Origin: a virus
DNA: 16,402 nt
IMG/VR virus record: IMGVR_UViG_3300021256_000064
Span: 128,001 to 144,402 of that record
Strand: one strand, 5' to 3'
The number at the start of each line of letters is the position of its first letter. Within the stretch, counting starts at the first letter, position 1. Positions 1,484 to 15,165 of this stretch are shown piece by piece. Position numbers and translations under genes: made by a program. The notes beneath the pieces were generated by a model. The model saw nothing but the letters and a program-made list of their open reading frames with translations. It ran no database searches and had not been told where the DNA came from.

Positions 1484-2044
1484 TTATTTACTTAACTCCT
1501 CAATTAATATTGCTCCTAATGAGTTACCAAGAACAATAAGTATAAATTTAAAAATATTTATTAAAGACAAATTGAATAACAGATAAGGAAAATCTGCTAT
1601 ACAATGCTCTGCTCCAATAAGAATAAAAATCATAATCGCAAAAATTGTTAATATAGTTACTTTATTTTTTACAGCAAAATGAATTAACATTCCACAGAAA
1701 GTAGCGTTTACAAATAAAGTTAATGCACTTTTGGTAAATTTAGTTGCACTAGACGCAGATATAATATTAACAAAATCTGGATTTCCTAAAGCATAAAGAC
1801 CTATTGTAGCTGCTATTGCAATACAATTAAATAATAATATTGTAATTAAGATTTTTTTCTATTCTAATGTTGGTTTAGAATAGAAACCAATTTTTCCAGT
1901 AAATAAATTTAATTGCATATTAATTATTGTTAAAAGTCCAAAACTAAATAATAAAGCTCCTAAAGCAGGGATTGAAGATTGAAGGTTAATAATAACCCCC
2001 AATCCAATTAAGATTCCCGCGAGAGCCGATTTTTTAACACACAT
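1484..2044 (-). CDS. formate/nitrite transporter (FNT)-family channel-like membrane protein, 186 aa with one in-frame TAG at 1859..1861
   Basis: Track ORFs 1859..2044 and 1484..1690 are in the same frame. I translated the gap and it contains a single TAG and no other stop. The joined protein is a hydrophobic multi-TM protein. It has the FNT hallmark motifs NLFTG (compare FocA GADLFTS) and GAEHCIADF (compare FocA GFEHSIANMF), plus a C-terminal LGNSLGA. It is shorter than FocA (~285 aa). The start overlaps the nrdD 3' end by 11 nt. Stop is TAA, 2 nt before the nrdG ATG. Confidence 0.55.
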
Positions 2045-4361
2045 AATCTTCCACTGCTCCCATATAACGACGTTGTCCTCTTAGTAAAGATGAATGCTTA
2101 AATCTCATTTCTGTTTCCTGTTGTTTTCCAAGATTAAAGGCTGTTTTATAATCTCCTGTTAAATAGCCTGTAACTCTACGCAATCTCTATATATTTGTTC
2201 CTCCGCACATTGGACATTCATTATTAATTTCTCCAGTGTATCCGCAATTTAAACATAAATCATTAGGAACATTTAATGCGAAATAAGGAATATCTTTATC
2301 CATAGCATAATTAACAATTTGTTCAAGTGCATCAATATTATGTAAGATTCCACTATCTAATTCTACATAAGTAATGCATCCTGCATTTGAATACCCAGTT
2401 AGTTGACTTTCAATATCAATCTTTGTAAATGGGTCAATTTCTTTCCAAACTGGAACGTGAATACTGTTAGTAAAGAACTCTTTATCACTTACATTAGGAA
2501 TTTCTCCATATTTTTCTTTAAATTTTTTCATGGCAGTATAGCATAAATTCTCAGCAGGAGTATAATAAACACCAAAGTTAAGTTTATATTTTTGTTTATA
2601 TTCCGCGCATCTGTCTTTAAATAATTGTTCAATACGTTTGGCAAGTTCCATACCTTCATCTGTTGTATGGTCTTTACCTATAAGTATTTGAAGAGTTTCT
2701 GCTAAGCCAAGTTGACCAAGAGCTAATGTGCCATGTTTAAGCGCGGATCTAATTCCTTCTTCAGGTTTATAACCTAACATGGTATTATTTTCCCACATAA
2801 ACTTTGCAGATTCAGGAGATTGAGAACAGATATATTCAAATCTTTCAATTAACATATCTTTAGCTTCATTAATTTTTTGATCAAGTAATAACATAAAATA
2901 TCCAATAATATTAGGATCATTTATTCCAATATTTTTTGTCCAACGATAATTAGCTTCCATAGCAAGAGTTGGAAGAATAATTGTTACAGGACAAATATTA
3001 CCGCGCCCGTCTTTACGCTGTGGATTTACACCTGGTTCTACATTTATATCTGCTCCATTAGCCGTACGGCATCCCATTGTAGAGAAATATGTAGTTGGGT
3101 CATTTTTGTCATAACCTGCATTTCCGCTCCAATCAACATTAGCGTAATTTGGATATAATCTTTTTGCTGTTGATTCAAGAGCTAATCTGTATAAATCATA
3201 ATTTGGAGTTCCTGGTTCTTTATTAACTCCTTTCATTACTTGGAAGATTCCACAAGGAAAAATTGATGTTTTATGGAATTTACCATTTCCTTTTATACTG
3301 CCTTCAAGTAATGCTTTAATAACCATTCTTCCTTCTGGAAGAGTACAGGTCCCATAGTTAATTGAAGTAAAGGGTAATTGATTGCCACTTCTACTTTGTA
3401 ATGTATTAAGATTATGATACATACCCTCAACCGCTTGTTGAAGCTATTTAACTGTCATATCCATAGCATATTGGTATGCTTTTTTATATTTTTGATATTC
3501 TAAATTATCAATACTAAAATTATCAGAATATTGGTTACGAATATTTATAAATTTTAAATGGCTTCCATTATTTTCTTTATTATAATATAAATCTGATGAT
3601 AATTCTATATATCTTAATCCATCAATATAATGTTTCCAAAAACTTTTTCTTACATAAGGAACCATTGTCCAATCTAAGTGAGTTGCTGATACGCCTCCAA
3701 ATTGTTGTAAACTTTGTAATTGAAATATTACTGCAACAAGTTGAAAAGCTGTATTAATTGAGTTTGCTGGTCTTACGTCTGTTTGACGAGTATTAAATCC
3801 TTTCGCTAATAAATCATCAAAAGGCACTGATAGACAATTATGCATACCAACTGCATATGTATCTAAATCATGAATATAAATTTCATTATTTAAATGATTT
3901 TCTCTAGCCATTTTTGACATACAATTATCAAGAGCGTATTGTTTGGAAATAATTGAATCAAATTCCCCGCGGCGACCACCAAAGGAATGTTCATCAACAT
4001 TAGCATTTTGATTATCAATTTTAGAACCTGCAAGTTTTTCTTGCGCTGCCCGCATCATTTTATTATTCCAATTTCTTTCTCTTGTTCTTTCTTCGCGATA
4101 TTTAATATACGCTTTTGCTACATCTTTTCTTTTTGTAGACATTAATCCATTTTCTACTAAGTCTTGAATTTCTTCAATAGATAATGGATGAGTTTCTTCT
4201 TCACAGTAGCCTTCAATATAATTTGCTATATTCTATGCTTTTGTTTCAGCATATTCAGAAATCTACCCATCTACTGCTTTAAAAGATTTTAAAATTGCAT
4301 TTTTAATTTTTTGTGTATCAAATGGCATTTGTCTACCATCTCTTTTGATTATATAAATCAT
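2034..4361 (-). CDS. nrdD: anaerobic (class III) ribonucleoside-triphosphate reductase, ~775 aa, with four in-frame TAG codons (4263..4265, 4233..4235, 3444..3446, 2187..2189)
   Basis: Track ORFs 3444..4142 and 2187..3422 are in one frame and joined by TAG. Upstream of 4142 the same frame continues through two more TAGs to ATG 4361..4359, with GGAGGA RBS. The N-terminus MIYIIKRDGRQMPFDTQKIKNAILKSFKAV...EEIQDLVENGLMSTKRKDVAKAYIKYREER is an ATP-cone that aligns with E. coli NrdD (VMKRDGCKVPFKSERIKEAILRAAKA...INEIQTAVENQLMS...ARAYIEYRHDR). Downstream of TAG 2187 lie the glycyl-radical motif LRRVTGYL and the NrdD C-terminal tail NLGKQQETEMRFKH. The C-terminal Zn cysteines are CLNCG...CPMCGG. Final stop is TAA 2034..2036. 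Confidence 0.85.
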
Positions 4362-4824: not shown

Positions 4825-7800
4825 TTAAATCTCCTTTTCTGTTGAAATTCTTTCATGTTCTAATGTAATATTTTTGTTTGTTACATTTGTAATTCTATAT
4901 AACTGATGTGTTGGTGTTGATTTATAAGTTTTTGCTACAAAAGTATCTTCTCGCCTAAATCCTGTAATTAAAACTTTTGTACCACGAGAGAACCAGCCTT
5001 TTTCTAATACTTTTTTAGTACCATCTGGTTGTTTTTCAGAAATTTGACGATTAAACATAGCATAATATTCTTTTGTAAATTTTACATTTACAACTCCATC
5101 TGTCGTTAAAATAGCGATAGATGCTTTAGTATTATTTTTACTAATAATTGTTCCTGCAATCCTATATAATTTAAAGATTGGAATTTTTCTATCTCCTCTT
5201 TTAAAGAAATAATCAACTACTGGTTCTTCTGATAAAGATGAAAAATCTACAATACCATATTTATATTTATCAATATTAGCTAATTCATGTTCGTGATAAT
5301 AAAAACACAAACTTTCCATTTCCCACGCAGAAATATTTCCAGTTGCATATTTATTCCATGTTTCATTAAATAATAAATTATTATATTGATTTAATACTTC
5401 ATCTTGATTCTCTTTTAACCAGTTTCTTGCTTCATCCATTTCTTTTTGATAGATTTTATCCCATTTAGTTTGAAGAATACAAGTAATTCCATTAATAACA
5501 TCAAGTTCATTTAAATCATAATATTGTGAATAAAAATTTAACGAACCTTCATCAAATATATAATATTTACCAACTTTTTTATTATCTTTAAGAAATTTAT
5601 TAAATACAAATACTTGTTTTTGTTTATTTAATTCTTCTGGTACTAAACCACTTTTTAATAATCCATTAAAATTTTGTAAAGTTAATCGCTTTTTTGGATC
5701 ACAAACTAATGATACATAATATGCCATAATTGCATATCTTGGATTTTCTTTACAAATTTCTGATGCCCAATCATTATCAACCTTATCAAAAGCTCCTGAT
5801 TTAATTAACGAAATCATTTGAGTTTTATTTAGCGGGCATCTATTCATAAAATCAATAATTCCAGTGTATGGGCGGCCGCCAATAATCTTATCAATAACTG
5901 GTCCACCAATTTTATTAACACCTTTTAATCCAAAAAGAATTTCATTATTTTCTTCATCTGGTTCAAAACTGTATCCAGATTTATTAATATCAATTAATGA
6001 TACTTTAATTCCTTTTGAAGTTATATCTCCAATAGCTTTTGCTAATTTAGAATAATCAGTAGATTTATCTTTAGTATTGTCCTCATCATCATCTTCATCA
6101 TCATCTTCAAGAGAAGCACTATTAATGATTAGACATGCAGTATTCCAATAAATTGGATTCCAATTAGTCGCTAAATAAATTGTCTGAACTCCAATAAAAG
6201 AATATGCAAGAGCATGAATGATAGAGAATGAATATCCCATCTGAGGACCAACACCGCATTTCCAAACATACTTACCAAGAGATGGACTAGAAGCTGTATC
6301 TAATATCTTTTGATGTAATTCTGGAATTTTTGCCATTTGTTTTTTACCAACAATTTTACGTGCGGCATTAGCTTCTTTTAATGAAAAATTGCAAATGTTT
6401 TCATCCATCAACATTCTCATTAACTGCTCTTGTGATGGTGGAACTCCATAAGATTGTTTGAAATATGGTTCAATAAATGTTTGTTCTTCTTTTGTTAAAC
6501 CTGCTCGATTCATTTCTTGATACCATAATGAAATATTATTTTTATAACGAATATATTTTTCCATAGGTGTCTCTTCACCCTTTTCAGATGTCATAAGACG
6601 CATTAAGCCATTGGCATCCGCCATTTCAAGAATATTAGTTGGTTTAATTTTCTTTGCGGCTTGTGATCCCACATCTGAATCAAACTGGAAAACATTTAAG
6701 ACACTATTATTTTGAAGAGCTTCCCATATTTTTTTATTCTCTAAAGGCAAAACTTCTGGATGAAGATATTTATTATATACCTCTCTTAAAGAGAGGTCTT
6801 TATCAATTTTATTATTTTCCTGAAGAAGTTTAATTGTTTGAACAATCTTATCCTGAACTTCTGTTACCAAGAAGTCATATTTTGTCATACCGCATGCTTC
6901 ACATTTATGAAGATCCCATTGAGTTATAATTTCACCTTTTGGAGTTTTCATAAAACATCCAAATTCGTATGGATCTTCATCAAAAAGAATAACACCAGAA
7001 GCATGACTAGACCTTTTATTTATCAACCCTTCAATTGCCATCGCAATATCTAATAAACCAGGATATAAATTAATTTCTGAAATAAAAGGCGCGATAGGTT
7101 TTCTATCTTTATCTTTATTCCCATATACAACATCTTTAAGAGGCCATAAAAAACCTCTCTCACTTGGAATTAAAGAAGATAAAAACTGAGCTGTATCAAC
7201 ATCAATCCCGTCTGGAAAATCTTCTGAGCGATAACCGCGGCAAGCTGTTAATACTGCTGATTTAGTTCCTTCTGTACCAAAAGTCGCAATAAGTGTGCAA
7301 CCAAGGTTTTTTCTACTTAAATCATCAATATCTTTATTGAAATTTTGACCTCGTTCTTCTTTTATCTTTTGAAGAATCAATGGACGTTTTGATGGACAAA
7401 GATCTAAGTCTATGTCGCCTAACTCAACACGTTCTTTATTAAGATAACGCCAGAACGGAAGATCCCATTTAATTGGGTCAAGCTGAGTGATGCCTAAAAG
7501 ATAATGATTTAATCCTGAGCAAGATGAACCACGCCCCGCACCAACTGTACTTCCGCACTCCCAAAAAAGATCAACATAATGCTGAAGAGTTATTGGATAA
7601 CTAAACATATTAGTTCCAAGTTTTTCACTAATAGTTTTTTTAATATCTGCTTCTTCTTCTAATCGAGAAAGATATTCTTTTTTATATATATTTTTATTTA
7701 ATAAATTTTGTAAACATTCATTTACCCAATATCTTTCATATTTATCATCAGAAGATAACATATTTCTTAAAGTTGGATAAAATTCTTCAATATTCATATC

Positions 7801-8784
7801 CCTAGATATTTTTGCGTAAGGATAAAAATTTTTACTTTTAGGATAATCTTTTACCTTTACTTTTGGAATTGTCTGTTGATGTCTAATATCATAGTTCTCA
7901 ATCTTATTATAAATTTCATATGAATTATCTACTAATTCATCATAATTTAATTCCGATGGTATAATATTTTCTTTTATGTCATTTTCATCTTGAAGATACG
8001 CATATTCATAAAATGCATCAACTTCACGTTCTCCGCCTTTTGAGTTAAGATATGCTTTATGTACATATCTATCTTCTTTTTTAAGATAATGTGCATCTGA
8101 TCCAAGAACCATTTTACAATCAAAGGCGGCAGCTACAGCTTTAAGACGTCTATTAACAATAACCTGTTCGCTTGATTGACCTGGCGCACACTCGATATAA
8201 AAGTCATCACCAAAAAGACGCTTACACCATAAGATAAAATCTACAATATCATTATGGGCTTCAGCGGCTCCTATTTTGTCATCATGCTTTTCTGCTTTTA
8301 TAAGATTTAAAAGTTGAGAAGAAACTTCTCCACCAAGACAAGCTGTTGTTGCAATTAAACTATTTGGATATTTATTAACAATCTCTTCAAGTTCATCATA
8401 TGTTGTAGGAACTCTTTCAAGACCTCTATCCCAATAACTATTCATCCAAGCTCTTGAAGAAAGCTCTCTTAATGCTCTGAATCCAATTTTATTTTTTGCA
8501 ATCAAAATAAAATGATAATATTTTTGTCCCATCTCTCTATCAGGAGTTAAATATATTTCATTTCCTAATGCAACTTTAAAATCTGGATGCGTCTTTAAAA
8601 TTTCTTGAGCATAGAAGTTTGCTTGCGGAGCACCGCTCAAACATTCATGATCGGTGAGAGCTATCCCACTTAAACCAATTTCTATTGCTCTATCAATAAG
8701 TGCTGGAATTTTATTAATGCAATCTAATAATCTTATGTTTGAAAATTCTGAGTGAGAATGCACCTCAAACCTTTTGACCATCAC
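4825..8784 (-). CDS. dnaE: DNA polymerase III alpha subunit (DnaE-type, PHP domain N-terminus), 1319 aa
   Basis: One uninterrupted ORF. The N-terminal PHP motifs are EVHSHSEFS...IALTDHECLSG. Size is typical for Pol III alpha. An acidic insertion DDDEDDDEDN lies in the C-terminal region. There are no in-frame TAG codons. Stop is TAA. RBS is AAGAGG. Confidence 0.9.
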   Translation of the reverse strand: MMVKRFEVHSHSEFSNIRLLDCINKIPALIDRAIEIGLSGIALTDHECLSGAPQANFYAQEILKTHPDFKVALGNEIYLTPDREMGQKYYHFILIAKNKIGFRALRELSSRAWMNSYWDRGLERVPTTYDELEEIVNKYPNSLIATTACLGGEVSSQLLNLIKAEKHDDKIGAAEAHNDIVDFILWCKRLFGDDFYIECAPGQSSEQVIVNRRLKAVAAAFDCKMVLGSDAHYLKKEDRYVHKAYLNSKGGEREVDAFYEYAYLQDENDIKENIIPSELNYDELVDNSYEIYNKIENYDIRHQQTIPKVKVKDYPKSKNFYPYAKISRDMNIEEFYPTLRNMLSSDDKYERYWVNECLQNLLNKNIYKKEYLSRLEEEADIKKTISEKLGTNMFSYPITLQHYVDLFWECGSTVGAGRGSSCSGLNHYLLGITQLDPIKWDLPFWRYLNKERVELGDIDLDLCPSKRPLILQKIKEERGQNFNKDIDDLSRKNLGCTLIATFGTEGTKSAVLTACRGYRSEDFPDGIDVDTAQFLSSLIPSERGFLWPLKDVVYGNKDKDRKPIAPFISEINLYPGLLDIAMAIEGLINKRSSHASGVILFDEDPYEFGCFMKTPKGEIITQWDLHKCEACGMTKYDFLVTEVQDKIVQTIKLLQENNKIDKDLSLREVYNKYLHPEVLPLENKKIWEALQNNSVLNVFQFDSDVGSQAAKKIKPTNILEMADANGLMRLMTSEKGEETPMEKYIRYKNNISLWYQEMNRAGLTKEEQTFIEPYFKQSYGVPPSQEQLMRMLMDENICNFSLKEANAARKIVGKKQMAKIPELHQKILDTASSPSLGKYVWKCGVGPQMGYSFSIIHALAYSFIGVQTIYLATNWNPIYWNTACLIINSASLEDDDEDDDEDNTKDKSTDYSKLAKAIGDITSKGIKVSLIDINKSGYSFEPDEENNEILFGLKGVNKIGGPVIDKIIGGRPYTGIIDFMNRCPLNKTQMISLIKSGAFDKVDNDWASEICKENPRYAIMAYYVSLVCDPKKRLTLQNFNGLLKSGLVPEELNKQKQVFVFNKFLKDNKKVGKYYIFDEGSLNFYSQYYDLNELDVINGITCILQTKWDKIYQKEMDEARNWLKENQDEVLNQYNNLLFNETWNKYATGNISAWEMESLCFYYHEHELANIDKYKYGIVDFSSLSEEPVVDYFFKRGDRKIPIFKLYRIAGTIISKNNTKASIAILTTDGVVNVKFTKEYYAMFNRQISEKQPDGTKKVLEKGWFSRGTKVLITGFRREDTFVAKTYKSTPTHQLYRITNVTNKNITLEHERISTEKEI
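6082..6110 (-). repeat. short tandem codon repeat (catcatcatctt-like) encoding the acidic DDDEDDDED tract inside dnaE
   Basis: Direct reading of + 6082..6110 (tcatcatcatcttcatcatcatcttc). It is low-complexity and in frame. Confidence 0.5.
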
Positions 8785-8814
8785 TTTACCTCTTTCACAT
8801 TATAATATAATTAT

Positions 8815-8863
8815 ATTATAAAATAAATAAATAAAAAAGTCAAGCGAGTTGCCCCGCTTGACT
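8815..8863 (-). terminator. rho-independent terminator after the homing-endonuclease gene
   Basis: The 9-bp stem AGTCAAGCG / CGCTTGACT spans 8838..8846 and 8855..8863 with an 8-nt loop. On the minus strand it is followed by a T-rich run (+ 8819..8837 is aaaataaataaataaaaaa). Confidence 0.5.
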
Positions 8864-9029
8864 AGTCATATAAAATAAATATTTAAGCTATCCTGTCCAT
8901 TGGAGTACCCTCCATATTATATTGGTTCAATATGTCAACGAGTTACAATTATTCAAACCATTGGACCGTACCTCTCTTTCATAATATTTATTTCTTACAA
9001 TTATATTATACAAAAAATTTTTTTATTTG

Positions 9030-9605
9030 TCAAATTTTATTTAAATCTTTTTGAGTTGGTATTTCTAATGCTTTTTTATGAATTTCATATCTTTGAGTAT
9101 AAGAATTTAATCTAATATATTTATACCATTTCTTTTTAGAATGAATACATTTATATACAGCTTGTTTTGAGATACCTTTTATATTACAAAAATCAGGGAT
9201 AGAAATAAAATCATTATCATTTTCTTGATTTATTTCTATATTATATGGAATAAAATTTTCTTTTGACATTCTTGGAACAAAATCATTTTTTGATATTGTA
9301 TTATTAATATTAAAATCATTTTCTTTATAAAGAATCCATTCTGGTTCTTTTAATAAAATAGTTGATTTAATGTTTTTAAAAGTTTGATTTAATTTAGGAT
9401 GATATTTTGTAATTAAAAAATATTCAAAACTATTCATTTCTAGCTCATTATTACAATTAAAATAATAAATTTCAAAATTTTTTAAATTTTGAAATTTATT
9501 ATCTTTGCTATGTTCATATAGCCGTCTTTTTAAATTATTTGTTTTTCCAATATATATAATTTTATTCTTTTGAACATATTTATAAATATAATATTTATTA
9601 ATCAT
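9030..9605 (-). mobile_element. free-standing GIY-YIG homing endonuclease gene (191 aa)
   Basis: N-terminus YIYKYVQKNKIIYIGKTNNLKRRLYEH is the GIY-YIG motif. The basic C-terminal tail resembles a NUMOD/HTH DNA-binding tail. The gene is intercalated between the Dda-like helicase and dnaE. Stop is TGA. Confidence 0.8.
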
Positions 9606-9635
9606 TTTTCTCTTTAAATTGGATAATTTTAATTA

Positions 9636-10817
9636 TTACCTCACTAATACTAATTTTTCACTAGCTCTCGTACAAGCTGTATATAGCCATCGAGCATGTT
9701 CATTTTTATCAAATGGAAACTTTTCTTCAAGAACAACTACCTTATCCCATTCACTACCTTGGCTTTTATGGGTTGTAATAGCATAGGCATATGTAAATTC
9801 TTTAGGAACAATTTCCCCATATTTAGAACGTAATTTGCCTAATTTATAAGACAATCGCCAATCACAACATTTTTCTCCAGTAATAATCATTTGGCGATCC
9901 ATCTCTGTCATTTGATAAACATCATTAGTTTCTGGCACAACTAAATCACCAACTAAAACATCAAATTTTCTTATATCACTTTGTACAAACCTGGGAATTT
10001 CTCTCCAAGTGCGAAAACTATTTTGAAGAATACCAATAGTCCCATTAATTAAAGCATCTCCATTTAAGCTTGAATCATCCCAGTAATTGCGGAGACATAT
10101 AATCTTATCTCCATCAACAGGTTCTCCAGTTCTTCCCTGTAGTGCGCGCATTTGATTATTAATGGCTCGTCGCTTTGCATTTGTTGCAGTTAGAATTTGG
10201 TCTCCCCATTGTAATACTCCAGTATTCAAATCTGAGTAAGGAATAATTTTTACTTCATTACCATTAAAATAATCAATTGACTCTTGATTTCTGATTTTCA
10301 TAGTAAGCTGAATAATTTCAGAATCTTCTTCCTGTCTCATAATTTCATCAAGAAAAATATGAGGATTATCTAATAGATGATTATCTTCATCTTTATCAAT
10401 AGGCGGCAACTGGAAAGGGTCTCCTAAACAAATAACATATACTCTATGCTTAAATAATAACTCTATTAAAGATTTGGGAGCCATAGAAACTTCATCAACT
10501 ACAACTACATCATAATCAATAAGTGGTTTTGGCTTTCTAAAGAAACCACCCGCTGGCCGCGGTATATGTTCATATAGTAACCGATGAAGAGTTGCTACAT
10601 TTTTATTTCCTTTTTTCTTTAATACCTCTGCAGCCTTACCAGTAAAAGCACAATAACATACCCTATCTTCTTCAACATTAAGAGCGTCGATGATATAACG
10701 CACTAGGGTCGACTTTCCTGTTCCTGCATATCCCGCTATTGTGGTAAATTTATATCCAGCTCGATGTCGCGCCACAGCTGTTTTTAATCCTTCCTCTTGT
10801 TTTTTTGTTAATATCAT
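9636..10817 (-). CDS. Dda/RecD-like superfamily 1 ATP-dependent DNA helicase (393 aa)
   Basis: Walker A is GYAGTGKST and Walker B is VVVVDEVSM. C-terminal motifs ITTHKSQGSEWDKVVV and YTACTRA match the AAA_30/UvrD_C_2 (RecD/Dda) architecture. The start overlaps the upstream stop in TAATG. Stop is TAA. Confidence 0.8.
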   Translation of the reverse strand: MILTKKQEEGLKTAVARHRAGYKFTTIAGYAGTGKSTLVRYIIDALNVEEDRVCYCAFTGKAAEVLKKKGNKNVATLHRLLYEHIPRPAGGFFRKPKPLIDYDVVVVDEVSMAPKSLIELLFKHRVYVICLGDPFQLPPIDKDEDNHLLDNPHIFLDEIMRQEEDSEIIQLTMKIRNQESIDYFNGNEVKIIPYSDLNTGVLQWGDQILTATNAKRRAINNQMRALQGRTGEPVDGDKIICLRNYWDDSSLNGDALINGTIGILQNSFRTWREIPRFVQSDIRKFDVLVGDLVVPETNDVYQMTEMDRQMIITGEKCCDWRLSYKLGKLRSKYGEIVPKEFTYAYAITTHKSQGSEWDKVVVLEEKFPFDKNEHARWLYTACTRASEKLVLVR

Positions 10818-11598: not shown

Positions 11599-11604
11599 AA
11601 AGAA

Positions 11605-11637
11605 AAAATGCGATTGAAAAAATTCCAAACGCATTTT
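11605..11637 (-). terminator. possible weak rho-independent terminator downstream of recJ-like gene
   Basis: Stem AAAATGCG (11605..11612) pairs with CGCATTTT (11630..11637). The loop is 17 nt and may pair internally. On the minus strand a T-run follows. The large loop makes this weak. Confidence 0.3.
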
Positions 11638-11673
11638 TCGTTTCCTGTGGACGACTGCCTGCGCGCCGAGCCG

Positions 11674-13455
11674 TTAAAAGAAGTATTTAGCAGAATCTAC
11701 AATTTCAAAATCCTACATAATAAGCTGTGGGTAGACGCAACCATTCCACTAATTTTTATTACATTTACAAATAGCGTTTACCTCTAAATATCCTGTTGTT
11801 GTAAATTTGGTAATTTCTTCTTCAGTTCCATTAAATTTAATAATAGATAATCCGTTAGGTAAATTAAATTTTAAAGTATTACTTTTCATAACTTTAAAAT
11901 TAGAATCAGTAACTTTAAAATTAATATTTACATAAGCTCTGTCTATATCTTGACCCCAATAATCATTCATATCTGCAATATCTAAAATGCGCTGATTGTT
12001 GTTTTCTTTTTCATTAAAATTATAATCAATTCTATAAATAGGTTCAACAGAGACATCTTCAAGAAGCTAATCAATCTTATAAAGAAAATCACTTATATGA
12101 TCTGCTTCTATACCAAGTCCCGCCGCATTGTCATGTCCCTATACATATAAAACTCCTGGACATTGTTCAAGTACTTCTTTAAAACTATTAATTCCAGTTT
12201 TTGTATATCCACGCATAGAGCCTTCATAAGTTGCTTTATCATTTCTATTAGTTTTAGTTAATAAACAACAAGGTCTTTGATATTTTGCCATAAATTTATT
12301 TGCAATTAAACCACGAATTTCAGAATCAATTTTATTAGGTTCTAATAAGAATAAAAGAATTTTATGGTCAAGCATATGATTAGTTTCAATCATTTTTTCT
12401 AACATAGCTAATCCTGCATCTTCTGCTCTTGTTTGTCTATTTTTAACATTCGTAACTGTTCTAATTGCCTGTAGAATTAATTTTTCTTTCTAACCTAATT
12501 TATGTCCACGCTTGTTTGAAATAACTTCTGTAAAAGCCTTATGTTTTAACATAGAATTAAAAAGTAAATTTTTCTATTCTATTGTTCCACTTCGAGTTAC
12601 AGCATTAATAAAAGGTACAATAAAAAATGCGGCGCCCATAGATGTACATCTCATATTAGGATCCGATGAAACATAATCTGCTTTTGATAAAGGAAATGAG
12701 TTTTTATCAATCATGTAGTCGATAAAAGGATTTTTAATATTCTATTTTTTGAACCCTTTAGTAATTAAATATCTAGTTTCAAATGAACGTAAAGACATCA
12801 TATCCCCACAGTTCCCTAGTGCAACCAAATCTAAAAAACCATCTGCTAATTTTATATCTAATTGATTATCAATATAACGACAAAATTGCCAAACAACCCC
12901 AACACCAGATAATTCCTTATTAGGATAATCTGATAATTGATTATTAATAATAATAGCATTTTCACTAATATGATCTGCTAAGTGATGATCTAAAACTAAT
13001 ACTTGAATATTTTTGTCTGTTAATATCTTATGATAACTATAATCATTACTACTTGAATCTGGGCAAATCACAAGCATTGGATTACGAGCTAATACAAAAT
13101 CAATACAATCACTTAATCCATGTTGTTTACTATCGTGCATATACCAATCTAAATGATTAACGACCCAAGTGGGAAATATCTTATATAAATAATTAATAAG
13201 AAGAGCTGCAGATGTATAACCATCACAATCACAGTCTACAATTACTAAAGCATCAGCATTTTCTCTTACAGTATTAATAATAGCCATTAAACCATTTTTG
13301 AGATTTGTTTCTCCTAAAGACAACGGGGAATTAATATCCTAATCAGATAGATTTACATAATGTAAAATTTCATCTTCCGCAATTCCTCTATTGTATAATA
13401 TTTGCTGTATTGTTGAAAAATTCTAATTTGGTTTATTTATTAACTAATATCTCAT
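11674..13455 (-). CDS. recJ: RecJ-like single-stranded-DNA exonuclease (DHH + DHHA1), ~593 aa, with ten in-frame TAG codons
   Basis: Track ORFs 12742..13323, 12139..12405 and 11749..11970 are all in one frame. The gaps between them, translated by hand, contain only TAG stops. These are at 13444, 13423, 13339, 12742, 12574, 12490, 12139, 12067, 11749 and 11713. The joined protein shows the RecJ N-terminus ILYNRGI, DHH motif I VIVDCDCDGYTSAALL, DHH motif III VLVLDHHLADH, FINAVTR (E. coli RecJ LNAAGR), and the DHHA1 motif *GHDNAAGLG (E. coli FGGHAMAAGL). ATG 13455..13453 is preceded by AGAGGAG. The final stop is TAA 11674..11676. The last ~25 codons after TAG 11749 are less certain. Confidence 0.75.
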
Positions 13456-13487: not shown

Positions 13488-13496
13488 ATTATAACA
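13488..13496 (-). promoter_or_regulatory. extended -10 (TGnTATAAT) promoter element upstream of the recJ-like gene
   Basis: Minus-strand TGTTATAAT is the complement of + 13488..13496. It lies just 3' of the terminator hairpin and ~33 nt upstream of the recJ ATG. No clear -35. Confidence 0.35.
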
Positions 13497-13531
13497 AAAA
13501 AAAGAAGAATTGTCAAATCAATTCTTCCTTT
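13491..13531 (-). terminator. rho-independent terminator after the membrane-protein gene
   Basis: The 9-bp stem GAAGAATTG (13504..13512) pairs with CAATTCTTC (13519..13527), with a 6-nt loop. On the minus strand a run of at least 8 T follows (+ 13491..13503 is A-rich). Confidence 0.45.
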
Positions 13532-13538
13532 TTATAAT

Positions 13539-13922: not shown

Positions 13923-15016
13923 TATTCTATTCTTATCCTTTCATTAAACAATTTTATAAAAATATCTTTACCACAATCAATAGGGGAATCTTTATAACCT
14001 AATAAATTATCTTTATCAAACATATAACTAATATTTACATAGCTTCCATATTTATTATATAATGTTTGTAATTTAATAACCCATTTTTCCCATTCTTTAT
14101 CTCTAGTTTTTTGAAACTGCTTATCAAAAGCGATTATAATTTCTTTTACTCCTAAAGACATCAATAATTTAACTTGATAATTAATTAAATTACTGCCGCA
14201 ACATGCTACACTAATATCTGAGTCTTTTCCAAAATATGACGCATATTTAAGACAACTTTTTTCACCTTCAAAAACAATTGCTTTTTGAAATATAGAAATA
14301 GTCTTTTTACTATTGTTCAAATTATATAAATTAAAACCAAGAGGATGATTATAAAGTTTTCCTTTTATATAGGCAGGACGATATTTTCCATATATCTCAT
14401 TTTCTTTTATAAGAGTTCTTTCTCGAATTCCAATTAATCTGTTATCTATGTCATAATGTGGAATAACAATTCCTTCGCTTATTGGATTATAACATATACC
14501 TCTTGATTCCATTATATCAGATGTTATATCTTCTTTTTCCCAAGGTAAGATACGGGGATGAGGTAAATATTTTAATATTTTATCATCATAAGTTTTTAAT
14601 TCTATAATTTGCGGTTGAGATTTTTCTTTATTTCTTTTAAAATTATTAATAATTTTCCAATCTTCATTAGCGTCTTGATTATCTTCAAAATCAAATATTT
14701 CAGCTGTACATCCAAAATATCTAGCCACAAAAGATATTGCCTTAGAAAGAGAAAAGCCTTCAATTCCTGCGGTTTTATTTACTCTTAAAACTAGATCATA
14801 TATATCAAATGACGCATCTCCACATCCTGTATAACAATGAAATAAATGAGTATTTTCATAATAATAAAGCTTATGGCTATCGCCGCCATGACAGATAGTG
14901 CGGGCGGTGAATAATCCATTACCCATAATTGGTTCACCGCCTAATTCGCTAACTAAATCAAATACTTCTTCTATTGATAAATTTTCTTTTAAAGTGTCTT
15001 TGTCATATTTGTACAT
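13922..15016 (-). CDS. dnaG: DnaG-type DNA primase (CHC2 zinc finger + Toprim), 364 aa
   Basis: Zinc-binding motif CHGGDSHKLYYYENTHLFHCYTGCG. Toprim motif VFEGEKSCLKY with a downstream acidic cluster. It follows the DnaB-like helicase. Stop is TAA. Confidence 0.85.
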   Translation of the reverse strand: MYKYDKDTLKENLSIEEVFDLVSELGGEPIMGNGLFTARTICHGGDSHKLYYYENTHLFHCYTGCGDASFDIYDLVLRVNKTAGIEGFSLSKAISFVARYFGCTAEIFDFEDNQDANEDWKIINNFKRNKEKSQPQIIELKTYDDKILKYLPHPRILPWEKEDITSDIMESRGICYNPISEGIVIPHYDIDNRLIGIRERTLIKENEIYGKYRPAYIKGKLYNHPLGFNLYNLNNSKKTISIFQKAIVFEGEKSCLKYASYFGKDSDISVACCGSNLINYQVKLLMSLGVKEIIIAFDKQFQKTRDKEWEKWVIKLQTLYNKYGSYVNISYMFDKDNLLGYKDSPIDCGKDIFIKLFNERIRIE

Positions 15017-15165
15017 TTTTTATCTCGATATTGTTTTCTAAATATTTTTAATCTTTTACAACTATTACATTTAGTATGATTATATTTACAATCCCAACAG
15101 TTATCATTATCCCACCAAAACCATCTTGGCGGTTGAGGTCTTGGTTTTCTAAATTTTTCTTTCAT
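14989..15165 (-). CDS. possible small Cys-rich (CxxC...CxxC zinc-ribbon) protein, 58 aa, not in the ORF track
   Basis: ATG 15165..15163 overlaps the dnaB-like stop in TAATG, the same coupling seen elsewhere in the window. It encodes MKEKFRKPRPQPPRWFWWDNDNCWDCKYNHTKCNSCKRLK... and ends at TAA 14989..14991. It overlaps the primase start by ~28 nt in another frame. Confidence 0.35.
   Translation of the reverse strand: MKEKFRKPRPQPPRWFWWDNDNCWDCKYNHTKCNSCKRLKIFRKQYRDKKCTNMTKTL

Follow-up and report, generated by a model that had tools for sequence, protein, structure and literature searches.

A viral gene interrupted by ten in-frame TAG codons proves to be an intact RecJ/YorK-like gene, located on the minus strand at positions 11674–13455 of the window, a 16,402-nucleotide stretch of DNA (positions 128,001–144,402 of IMG/VR record IMGVR_UViG_3300021256_000064). 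As judged from comparative sequence analysis, the gene is best explained as part of an SPbeta-like phage, about 125–140 kb in size and with rumen Bacillota as hosts, in which TAG serves as a genome-wide sense codon, probably for glutamate.

An intact RecJ-type nuclease gene

Translation and a census of stop codons define a single frame of 593 sense codons, which starts at ATG (13453–13455) and ends at TAA (11674–11676). The frame contains exactly ten TAG codons, the unusually high number that the first-pass annotation had pointed out, and neither TAA nor TGA. At a G+C content of about 28%, TAA and TGA are expected to account for about 7% of random codons, and the chance of a 593-codon run free of both is about 1e-19; both values are estimates from base composition. 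Related contigs yielded 38 orthologues, in which the frame is kept and 0–12 TAG codons occur at shifting positions.

The same annotation had doubted the position of the C-terminus on account of a GC-rich tail. The terminal sequence ...DSAKYFF is kept, up to the stop, in about 30 orthologues and forms the last β-strands of the modelled OB fold; TAA 11674 is therefore the true stop codon. The GC-rich stretch (11644–11673) follows this codon as 3′ untranslated region and sits between it and a terminator-like inverted repeat at 11603–11639 on the minus strand (AAAAATGCG...CGCATTTTT, followed by a T run). The repeat was read directly from the sequence, having escaped the scan tool due to its 17-nt loop. 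On the 5′ side, a σ70 promoter is predicted at 13488–13516 (minus strand), 33 nt upstream of the start codon, from a perfect consensus match (TTGACA-17-TATAAT with TG), and a hairpin at 13498–13533 overlaps it.

All three RecJ domains were recognized in the product, extending the DHH and DHHA1 motifs on which its first description as RecJ-like had been based. The DHH catalytic domain with the DCDCDG, PDSSS and DHH motifs spans residues 70–214 (12814–13248, minus strand; Pfam PF01368, E 1.2e-12, above cut-off), and the DHHA1 domain with the GH..AAG motif spans residues 374–466 (12058–12336, minus strand; PF02272, E 3.9e-7, 30.9 bits versus a cut-off of 25.9). The RecJ OB-fold domain at residues 492–582 (11710–11982, minus strand; PF17768, E 2.4e-4) scored 21.6 bits, below the curated cut-off of 27; the fold is confirmed by the AlphaFold2 model (pLDDT 91.4), which superposes on RecJ structures along its whole length, in keeping with the ring-shaped architecture of RecJ. 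Asp-74, Asp-76, Asp-78, Gly-79, Asp-133, Asp-156, His-157, His-158 and Asp-218, which make up DHH motifs I–IV, are invariant in two alignments, and Gly-440, His-441, Ala-444 and Gly-446 of DHHA1 are also invariant alignment columns. Foldseek matched the model to the solved structure of S. aureus RecJ (8y30_A; E 3.5e-30, TM 0.72, 591 aligned columns), and the model also aligns with D. radiodurans RecJ (5f55) and T. thermophilus RecJ (2zxo). The segments between the TAG codons had been proposed to be collinear with RecJ, and the product indeed aligns collinearly with 8y30_A over residues 16–585. By sequence and model, the product is a full-length RecJ/YorK-type DHH enzyme with all catalytic motifs present and a predicted 5′–3′ ssDNA exonuclease activity.

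The phage protein shares with bacterial RecJ and SPbeta YorK the DHH/DHHA1 core, all metal-binding motifs and the RecJ OB fold; the ten TAG sense codons set its gene apart from both. Cellular RecJ has about 700–760 residues, whereas the phage protein has 593 and is without the C-terminal extension. Its best cultured-phage matches are YorK proteins of the SPbeta group, and identity to YorK-type proteins of SPbeta-like, Enterococcus and Geobacillus phages is 31–34%. In the phage genome the gene is part of the replication module, a place equivalent to that of YorK among the replication genes of the SPbeta prophage. Pfam identified YorF, YorH, YonG_N, YomO, YomU, YomV and YomW in the flanks of a near-identical contig, and the families YorK, YorF, YorH, YonG and YomO/U/V/W are shared with SPbeta-like phages in synteny. 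No near-identical DNA was found among cultured phages, and no integrated copy in species-representative genomes, where only MAG-binned, phage-sized contigs were recovered. The MAG bins and one source name make a Bacillota host likely.

TAG as a sense codon and its distribution among genes

On the near-identical contig, 34 genes were called; all of them stop at TAA or TGA, none at TAG, and many genes contain in-frame TAG. TAA is the main stop codon and ends most genes, RecJ included. The anaerobic ribonucleotide reductase NrdD (2034–4361, minus strand; 775 codons) contains four in-frame TAG codons, which shows that the sense use of TAG is not confined to RecJ; orthologues have GAA/GAG at its TAG columns. 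A search around the TAG codons found no sequence context indicative of programmed read-through. In the source phage lineage TAG is a sense codon genome-wide and termination is left to TAA and TGA; in-frame TAG in conserved genes together with these two codons as sole stops is also a feature of code-15 phages.

The TAG load is specific to individual genes within the operon, a feature that the first-pass annotation did not mention, and the replisome genes have none. DnaE, the DNA polymerase III alpha subunit (4825–8784, minus strand; 1319 codons), is free of TAG, with a single TAG across 24 orthologues. Eight TAG-free genes neighbouring RecJ together contain 0 TAG in about 3,035 codons, and we calculate a chance of about 1e-8 that all ten TAGs would land in RecJ. 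Among orthologues, 164 TAGs were counted in 38 RecJ sequences, compared with about zero in DnaE, DnaB, primase, helicase, gyrase and ligase. Expressed per 100 codons, the frequency is 0.01–0.08 in the replisome, gyrase and ligase orthogroups, 0.89 in RecJ and up to 2.9 in late genes. TAG is dense in RecJ, a 314-aa GIY-YIG protein and a 219-aa protein of the early operon as well as in late structural and packaging genes. Heavily recoded late products include a YomV-like protein (13 TAG in 259 codons), the portal and two proteins encoded upstream of TerL. This pattern agrees with the late-gene-switch model of Borges et al., in which the recoded codon is absent from early and replication genes and enriched in late or lytic ones; NrdD and dUTPase, which have few TAGs in the same operon, blur the early/late split.

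With TAGs at codons 4, 11 and 39, full-length RecJ would have to await the reading of UAG by the infected cell. RecJ production would then depend on the switch by which late genes are licensed, a timing role suggested by the codon distribution and the consensus promoter.

The residue specified by TAG

Candidate residues were compared by a leave-one-codon-out column likelihood, using the minor codons GAG, CAG, AAG, GAC, TAC and TTG as controls, for which the true residue was recovered every time. For 226 TAG columns of the replication region, Glu scored +71.6, Gln -200 and Lys -260; for 452 TAG columns of late genes, Glu scored +496, Gln -582 and Asp -601. The source lineage alone (38 columns) gave +48 for Glu and -36 for Gln, and ten out of ten sub-lineages returned Glu. 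Columns with at least 80% agreement among the other sequences were Glu in 107 cases, Asp in 6 and Gln in 3. The nearest non-TAG partner codons were GAA (90), CAA (38), AAA (30) and GAG (22), and about 8% of TAG columns have a Gln majority and about 8% a Lys majority. Composition regression within orthogroups yielded -0.70±0.05 Glu and -0.02±0.03 Gln per TAG, and -1.08±0.23 Glu per TAG for RecJ alone. As a reciprocal control, distant lineages in the same alignments gave Gln (L198, Gln +73; regression, Gln -0.81±0.07 per TAG), and phAss-1 RecJ and the lineages with tRNA arrays lean towards Gln. As related lineages return Gln in the same alignments, the method separates Glu from Gln. What such a comparison shows is the residue mimicked by TAG in evolution, which is compatible with partial Gln insertion or with a modified acidic residue.

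The first-pass annotation had suggested that alignment columns could constrain the encoded residue, and inspection of all ten RecJ columns indicated Glu. We counted codons in close relatives and residues in 118 diverse representatives, among which Glu is the top residue at eight of the ten columns. No Gln codon occurs in the four TAG-richest columns (39, 238, 294 and 581; all coordinates here refer to the minus strand). Codon 39 (13339–13341) has the most widely shared TAG, present in 22 of 29 orthologues together with GAA in 3 and AAA in 2; distant representatives have Asp in 23 and Glu in 23. Codon 238 (12742–12744) is TAG in 14 relatives and GAA in 13. Codon 294 (12574–12576) marks a subfamily-conserved glutamate, with TAG 15, GAA 13 and GAG 2 in relatives and Glu in 107 of the 118 representatives (Asp 6, Gln 5). 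Codon 581 (11713–11715), in the last strand of the OB domain, is TAG in 13 relatives and GAA in 7, and Glu in 54, Asp in 15 and Lys in 14 representatives. At codon 322 (12490–12492), relatives have GAA 19, GAG 6 and TAG 6, and representatives Glu 47, Asp 19, Lys 16 and Gln 13; at codon 569 (11749–11751) in the OB domain, the counts are TAG 6, CAA 5 and GAA 4, with Glu in 66 of 118 representatives. The N-terminal codon 4 (13444–13446) pairs with GAA 13, CAA 9 and AAA/AAG 4, and codon 11 (13423–13425), a variable position, mostly with AAA (22). Codon 463 (12067–12069) is Gln-rich in close relatives (CAG 8, CAA 6, TAG 5) and has Glu 35 and Lys 30 in representatives. Codon 439 (12139–12141), directly before GH..AAG of DHHA1, had been noted as aligning with the first glycine of the GGH element in canonical RecJ, with a possible bearing on its meaning. 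The alignment was reproduced with 8y30_A (fgGH), but the YorK-like subfamily replaces this glycine with Glu, Gln or Ala, and a glycine meaning is rejected; relatives have GAA/GAG in 20 and CAA/CAG in 7, and the 118 representatives Glu 32, Gln 30, Ala 24 and Ser 9.

An ambiguous decoding, in which a partly amidated suppressor of the Glu-tRNA(Gln) type inserts both Glu and Gln and TAG is selected where either is tolerated, appears improbable. In the replication region the TAG profile is less sharply peaked than that of the GAG control (Glu.34 versus.54), with Gln and Lys shares above that control, and the use of Gln by sister lineages suggests a common ancestor of the Gln type; given the indirect route to Gln-tRNA in Bacillota, a mixture is chemically possible (PMC2811023). 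However, the late-gene TAG profile (Glu.45, Asp.10, Lys.08, Gln.08) is nearly the same as that of GAG (Glu.48, Asp.11, Lys.08, Gln.05), TAG occurs at many strictly conserved Glu positions, and the extra Gln share is more simply explained by CAG-to-TAG mutation, a single transition.

Somewhat less probable still is ordinary code 15, with TAG read as Gln and the Glu signal generated by frequent Glu-to-Gln substitution through GAG-to-TAG mutation. The public catalogue protein P0001 is 100% identical to the Gln-substituted RecJ frame, related lineages do use Gln, some TAG columns such as codon 463 and column 17 are Gln-rich, and TAG-to-Gln is the only reassignment reported for phages whose code differs from that of the host (10.1101/2021.08.26.457843). 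A Gln reading predicts CAA/CAG partners at the frequency of the CAG control (Gln.48–.59), whereas the observed shares are.08–.13 for Gln and.34–.55 for Glu. It also disagrees with the conserved columns (Glu 107 versus Gln 3), with the four RecJ columns lacking Gln codons and with the regression, in which the Glu count falls as TAG rises while the Gln count stays steady. Homologues do not present Gln at the TAG positions in the manner of code 15; the log-likelihoods favour Glu by hundreds of units.

It is very unlikely that TAG specifies another residue such as glycine, lysine, pyrrolysine, serine or leucine. The canonical Gly at codon 439, a few TAG columns with a Lys, Ser or Leu majority, a tRNA-Lys(UUU) in the closest relative and long-variable-arm CUA tRNAs in other relatives could be taken in its favour, but the likelihoods of Gly, Lys, Ser and Leu are hundreds of log units below that of Glu, column 439 is not Gly in the subfamily, and the tRNA-Lys has its normal UUU anticodon. 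A decaying pseudogene, or TAGs acting as true stops that leave only fragments, is effectively refuted: the standard code does split the gene into three ORFs plus gaps, but nothing except TAG interrupts the 593 codons (no TAA, TGA or frameshift), the catalytic motifs are all intact in a confident full-length RecJ-like model, and the frame is kept across the 38 orthologues.

Decoding of UAG and relation to known codes

ARAGORN and Rfam searches covered the window together with more than 250 related loci. They detected no CUA tRNA in the window itself, in about 55 kb of the family's replication region or in 83 of the 140 kb of the closest relative (IMGVR_UViG_3300021400_001206; positions 1–70,812 and 127,246–139,781 covered). 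The only tRNA in the covered part of that relative is the tRNA-Lys(UUU), which was rejected as a UAG decoder given its anticodon and the very low Lys likelihood. A permissive ARAGORN run allowing introns returned junk only, nhmmer with a profile of the relatives' suppressor tRNAs returned nothing, and inspection of the GC island revealed only a small GC-rich ORF. The early TAG-free proteins (gyrase B/A, RNase H, phosphoesterases, an RNA ligase and a PNK-like kinase) comprise no aminoacyl-tRNA synthetase or release factor. Genome walking with a 713-aa tail protein as the query found nothing, with a 959-aa query only contigs of about 1.5 kb, and with a 66-aa early protein only short contigs in the protein catalogue. 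Some relatives have CUA suppressor tRNAs or tRNA arrays, including the CUA tRNAs with long variable arms; about half of code-15 phages lack a Sup-CTA tRNA (PMC11210395).

The decoder would be a glutamylated CUA suppressor tRNA supplied by the phage or the host. In Bacillota, Gln-tRNA(Gln) arises by an indirect route, in which a non-discriminating GluRS acts first and GatCAB second. Glu would be inserted by a CUA tRNA that this GluRS charges but GatCAB refuses. GatCAB recognises U1-A72 and the D-loop (PMC2811023). Whether the glutamylated CUA suppressor is amidated by GatCAB or not would offer a plausible route for switching between Glu and Gln among lineages.

Code 15, in which TAG encodes Gln, is used by crAss-like, Lak and phAss-type phages. 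The phage described here resembles them in using a stop as a sense codon in a host that presumably has the standard code, and in recoded codons that are enriched late and absent from early/replication genes. phAss-1 (OQ749652) is of similar size and has replication genes in common, including a TAG-containing RecJ homologue. The differences are that we infer Glu here and Gln there, that the CUA suppressor tRNA or tRNA array of relatives was not found in the regions searched, and that a replication-module nuclease is here among the most heavily recoded genes. The peritrich ciliate nuclear code (NCBI table 30) assigns both UAA and UAG to Glu. UAG = Glu is common to the two codes, but the peritrich code is eukaryotic nuclear and also reassigns UAA, whereas the phage reassigns only UAG and ends most genes with TAA; their origins are unrelated. 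To our knowledge, TAG = Gln and TGA = Trp are the only stop-codon reassignments reported in phages, and a literature search turned up no previous description of a phage that reads UAG as Glu.

The alignments argue that UAG probably means Glu in this SPbeta-like rumen phage family, with UAA and UGA as stops, and Gln in sister lineages, so that its meaning would have switched within the group. Taken jointly with this switch, UAG = Glu with UAA/UGA stops is, with the same good probability, a code previously unreported for any virus or bacterium. If true, this would add a new natural genetic code to the prokaryotic virosphere, and the meaning of a reassigned stop could change from one phage to a close relative. 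TAG = Gln is hard-wired in gene callers. Public proteins of these phages translated with table 15 would then all carry Gln where the virus has Glu, and thousands of catalogued proteins, P0001 as the catalogue copy of RecJ being one example, would be mistranslated at functionally conserved glutamates. The finding would also connect phage recoding with the indirect Gln-tRNA pathway of the host in a concrete, testable way, bearing on how a suppressor tRNA is charged without a phage synthetase. For the phage itself, the distribution of TAG suggests that a nuclease encoded inside the replication operon may be held back at translation until the code is switched.

The RecJ reading frame and its product

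Translation and a stop census place the RecJ gene in a single frame of 593 sense codons at window positions 11674-13455 (minus strand), ending in a TAA stop (11674-11676). TAG occurs at codons 4, 11, 39, 238, 294, 322, 439, 463, 569 and 581 (n = 10), and no in-frame TAA or TGA is present across the 593 codons. Base composition gives an estimated probability of about 1e-19 for such a TAA/TGA-free run in local DNA of ~28% G+C. Chance therefore cannot explain the run and the frame is real, as the first-pass annotation had proposed. The same annotation had doubted the C-terminus because of a GC-rich tail. The terminal ...DSAKYFF is kept in about 30 orthologues and forms the last OB strands in the structural model, so that TAA at 11674 is the true stop and the doubt falls away. 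The GC-rich stretch CGGCTCGGCGCGCAGGCAGTCGTCCACAGG (11644-11673, minus strand; 30 nt) is non-coding and lies directly 3' of this stop in a genome otherwise of 28% G+C; beyond it come a terminator-like inverted repeat and the next gene's promoter. Directly upstream of RecJ is a perfect-consensus sigma-70 promoter, TTGACA-17-TATAAT with a TG extension (13516-13488, minus strand), overlapped by a 15-pair hairpin in the sequence (13488-13533, minus strand) that might terminate transcription of the preceding gene or occlude the RecJ promoter.

The RecJ-like identity suggested earlier is confirmed by several lines of evidence. Pfam identified a DHH domain (residues 70-214), a DHHA1 domain (residues 374-466) and, weakly, a RecJ_OB domain (residues 492-582), and residues 16-585 are collinear with the solved S. 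aureus RecJ. An AlphaFold2 model computed with 20 homologues as input (mean pLDDT 91.4) superposed on S. aureus RecJ over 591 columns (E 3.5e-30, TM 0.72) and also on the D. radiodurans and T. thermophilus enzymes. The metal-binding residues are invariant in alignments (DCDCDG, D133, DHH at 156-158, D218 and GH..AAG at 440-446). Sequence and model thus show the gene product to be an intact RecJ-fold enzyme. The top cultured-phage matches are YorK-type "RecJ-like ssDNA exonucleases" of SPbeta-group Bacillus phages and of Enterococcus and Geobacillus phages (31-34% identity). The enzyme joins the RecJ/YorK family as a new member.

Reassignment of TAG and the residue it encodes

Among the called genes of the near-identical 124.6-kb ENA contig, none ends in TAG and every stop is TAA or TGA. 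In-frame TAG is frequent in genes for GIY-YIG-314 (9), a 219-aa protein (10), RecJ (10), NrdD (4), YomV (13) and a 959-aa GDSL protein (14), among others, and essentially absent from those for DnaE, DnaB, primase, SF1 helicase, gyrase and ligase, a family-wide pattern. RecJ orthologues carry 164 TAGs in 38 sequences, or 0.89 per 100 codons; replisome orthogroups have 0.01-0.08 and late genes up to 2.9. Each RecJ orthologue has 0-12 TAGs and single positions come and go, the widely shared ones being codons 39 (22/29 orthologues), 294 (15/30) and 581 (13/24). The TAGs are not marked by any nucleotide context, and TAG is a reassigned codon rather than a site of specific read-through.

The first-pass annotation had looked to alignment columns as a guide to the meaning of TAG, and this approach worked, with an unexpected result. 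At the DNA level RecJ TAG columns pair mostly with GAA/GAG, and no CAA/CAG occurs at the columns richest in TAG (39, 238, 294 and 581). We scored amino acids by leave-one-codon-out likelihood, using for each column with the codon their frequency in the other sequences. Glutamate was favoured across 226 columns of replication-region orthogroups (E +71.6, Q -200, K -260), also with RecJ left out (E +34.9, Q -173), and across 452 columns of late-gene orthogroups (E +496, Q -582, D -601). In late genes the average profile of a TAG column (E.45, D.10, K.08, Q.08) nearly equals the one for GAG, the minor Glu codon (E.48, D.11, K.08, Q.05), and TAG columns with at least 80% agreement among the other sequences comprise 107 E, 6 D and 3 Q. 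Control codons all returned their true residues (GAG, CAG, AAG, GAC, AAC, TAC, CAC, TTG, TCG, CGT and GGG). The source lineage alone gave E +48 versus Q -36, and all 10 of 10 sub-lineages gave E. In a set of 118 diverse representatives of distant homologues, with 32-64% identity, 8/10 RecJ TAG columns have E as their commonest residue, and residue 294 is E in 107 of the set.

Codon usage gave the same picture. In a composition regression within orthogroups, which depends little on alignment, each extra TAG was accompanied by a change of -0.70±0.05 in Glu codons and of -0.02±0.03 in Gln codons; RecJ taken by itself gave -1.08±0.23 and +0.14±0.23. The sum of E and TAG per RecJ is constant (~37-41), and Q plus TAG would be inflated. 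The commonest nearest partner codon other than TAG is GAA (90), ahead of CAA (38), AAA (30) and GAG (22). Gln is the majority residue in ~8% of TAG columns and Lys in ~8%; one-step mutation from CAG or AAG to TAG at tolerant sites can account for these. The TAG at 12139-12141 (codon 439) aligns with the first Gly of fgGH in canonical RecJ, from which a glycine had been considered; the YorK-like subfamily has E, Q, A or S in this column, which fits Glu and does not support Gly, and the glycine reading is rejected.

The method is able to return Gln, because more distant lineages and the phAss-1 RecJ come out so. In the same alignments the distant lineage L198 gave Q +73 over 56 columns, L244 and L250 likewise gave Gln, and regression in these lineages yielded Gln -0.81±0.07 per TAG. 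TAG is Gln in published phAss-1 (PMC10607447), whose RecJ gives Gln weakly. A lean towards Gln is also seen where a lineage has a tRNA array with Gln-like CUA tRNAs in it; Glu is returned by other lineages in which no tRNAs were detected (L119, L120, L123, L127, L128, L133, L155 and L230). Since some lineages return Gln and others Glu, both meanings occur in this phage group, with the window in a Glu-type lineage. On comparative evidence, glutamate is the most likely meaning of TAG in this lineage; Glu is the residue whose evolutionary behaviour TAG mimics, a pattern compatible with partial Gln insertion.

Phage context and host

The window corresponds to a large phage's replication module, with minus-strand genes in the order DnaB, primase, membrane protein, RecJ, gp30.3-like protein, SF1 helicase, GIY-YIG endonuclease, DnaE, dGTPase-N-like protein, NrdD, FNT-like protein and NrdG. 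The ENA contig (99.8% identity across most of the window) and many IMG/VR rumen contigs (117-142 kb) provided a wider map. Upstream lie genes for a PNK-like kinase, phosphoesterases, RNA ligase, RNase H, gyrase B/A, NAD ligase, YorF and YorH. The opposite strand encodes, downstream, YomO, YomU (tube), YomV, YomW, tail fibres, portal and TerL. This layout is an SPbeta-like architecture. The MAG bins in which relatives occur belong mostly to Bacilli, Erysipelotrichaceae and Clostridia, and one catalogue entry bears the name Candidatus Onthovivens, from which the host is probably a rumen member of Bacillota.

Between DnaB and primase the ENA contig carries a YonG_N-like gene (L032 7974-8436; 149 aa, 4 TAG) that is absent from the window. 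Upstream of this site (window ~15016-15165) identity falls from 99.8% to 90.5%, marking a recombination boundary between two strains. The 191-aa GIY-YIG/T5orf172 endonuclease gene (9030-9605, minus strand; TGA stop), between SF1 helicase and DnaE, sits where the window is richest in A+T (22-24% G+C across 8501-10000). It has no orthologue among the other family loci (an orthogroup of one member) and has the look of an inserted free-standing homing endonuclease.

At the start of the family's early operon are genes for a PNK-like kinase (AAA_33), for several metallophosphoesterases and for an RNA ligase (PF09414 with a PHA02142 OB domain), as seen in relatives at L110 8129-9370, L113 8353-9612, L082 7329-8180 and L054 1272-1784. 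This set resembles a tRNA-repair system, and all of these genes are TAG-free. Divergent to the operon, on its left and among tail-fibre-like genes, is a giant gene that reaches 2,831 codons and contains ~45 TAGs (L115 492-8984, minus strand; also in L094, L099 and L081), whose N-terminal ~330 residues are conserved across the family and whose remainder is variable.

Decoding of UAG and relation to known codes

No CUA tRNA was found in the window, in ~55 kb of replication region across dozens of relatives or in 83 of the 140 kb of the closest relative, IMGVR_UViG_3300021400_001206. The only tRNA in those 83 kb is a canonical tRNA-Lys(UUU) (Rfam 74 bits; L332 17197-17272, ~58.2 kb of that record) among small early ORFs. 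One family lineage has a cluster of odd tRNA-like genes (L284 3636-4237, minus strand), namely a tRNA-Leu(CAA), a CAU-anticodon tRNA with a ~30-nt insert past the anticodon arm and a gene with a 3-nt anticodon loop; in another, the anticodon loop of a tRNA-like gene measures 9 nt (L281 3018-3091, minus strand). None of these bears a CUA anticodon. The CUA suppressor tRNAs of Gln-type relatives and phAss-1 (L126 13227-13323, L137 3242-3330, L140 2264-2353 and, for phAss-1, L034 12442-12532) share an A1·C72 mismatch, G73 and a variable-region hairpin (..CCCTCTGAAGGG..), which extends them to 89-97 nt; phAss-1 has a second suppressor of 75 nt with U1·C72.

Most Bacillota lack GlnRS and produce Gln-tRNA(Gln) through glutamylation by a non-discriminating GluRS followed by GatCAB amidation. 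GatCAB recognises U1-A72 and the D-loop (PMC2811023). From this tRNA biology, a CUA suppressor accepted by GluRS but not by GatCAB would insert Glu, and one accepted by GatCAB would insert Gln; both codes in related phages of Bacillota hosts would then follow from GatCAB accepting or refusing the suppressor. Three TAGs lie within the first 39 RecJ codons, and RecJ synthesis needs UAG decoding. Ribosomes in an uninfected or early-infected cell would halt at codon 4; once the decoder is active, RecJ would be made alongside the late genes and two further early-operon genes with heavy recoding. We infer both this type of decoder and this timing of RecJ, the latter fitting the proposal that recoding times late functions (10.1101/2021.08.26.457843), here for a nuclease embedded among TAG-free replisome genes.

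Otherwise, UAG as Glu is known from ciliate nuclear codes. In those codes UAA is reassigned too, whereas this phage keeps TAA as its main stop. Full-text literature searches turned up no phage or bacterium for which UAG-to-Glu had been reported; Borges et al. saw only TAG-to-Gln and TGA-to-Trp (10.1101/2021.08.26.457843), and annotation tools offer table 15 only (PMC11210395). The public catalogue copy of the RecJ protein (P0001) has Q at all ten TAG sites, and some catalogue orthologues are N-terminally truncated (537-555 aa), starting past TAG 39; both features result from automatic table-15 or table-11 gene calling. Recoding here is like that of code 15 phages in every respect but the amino acid, and the defining feature of that code, TAG as Gln, fails in the window's lineage. 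A lineage that most likely reads TAG as Glu would thus be a new variant of phage stop-codon recoding.
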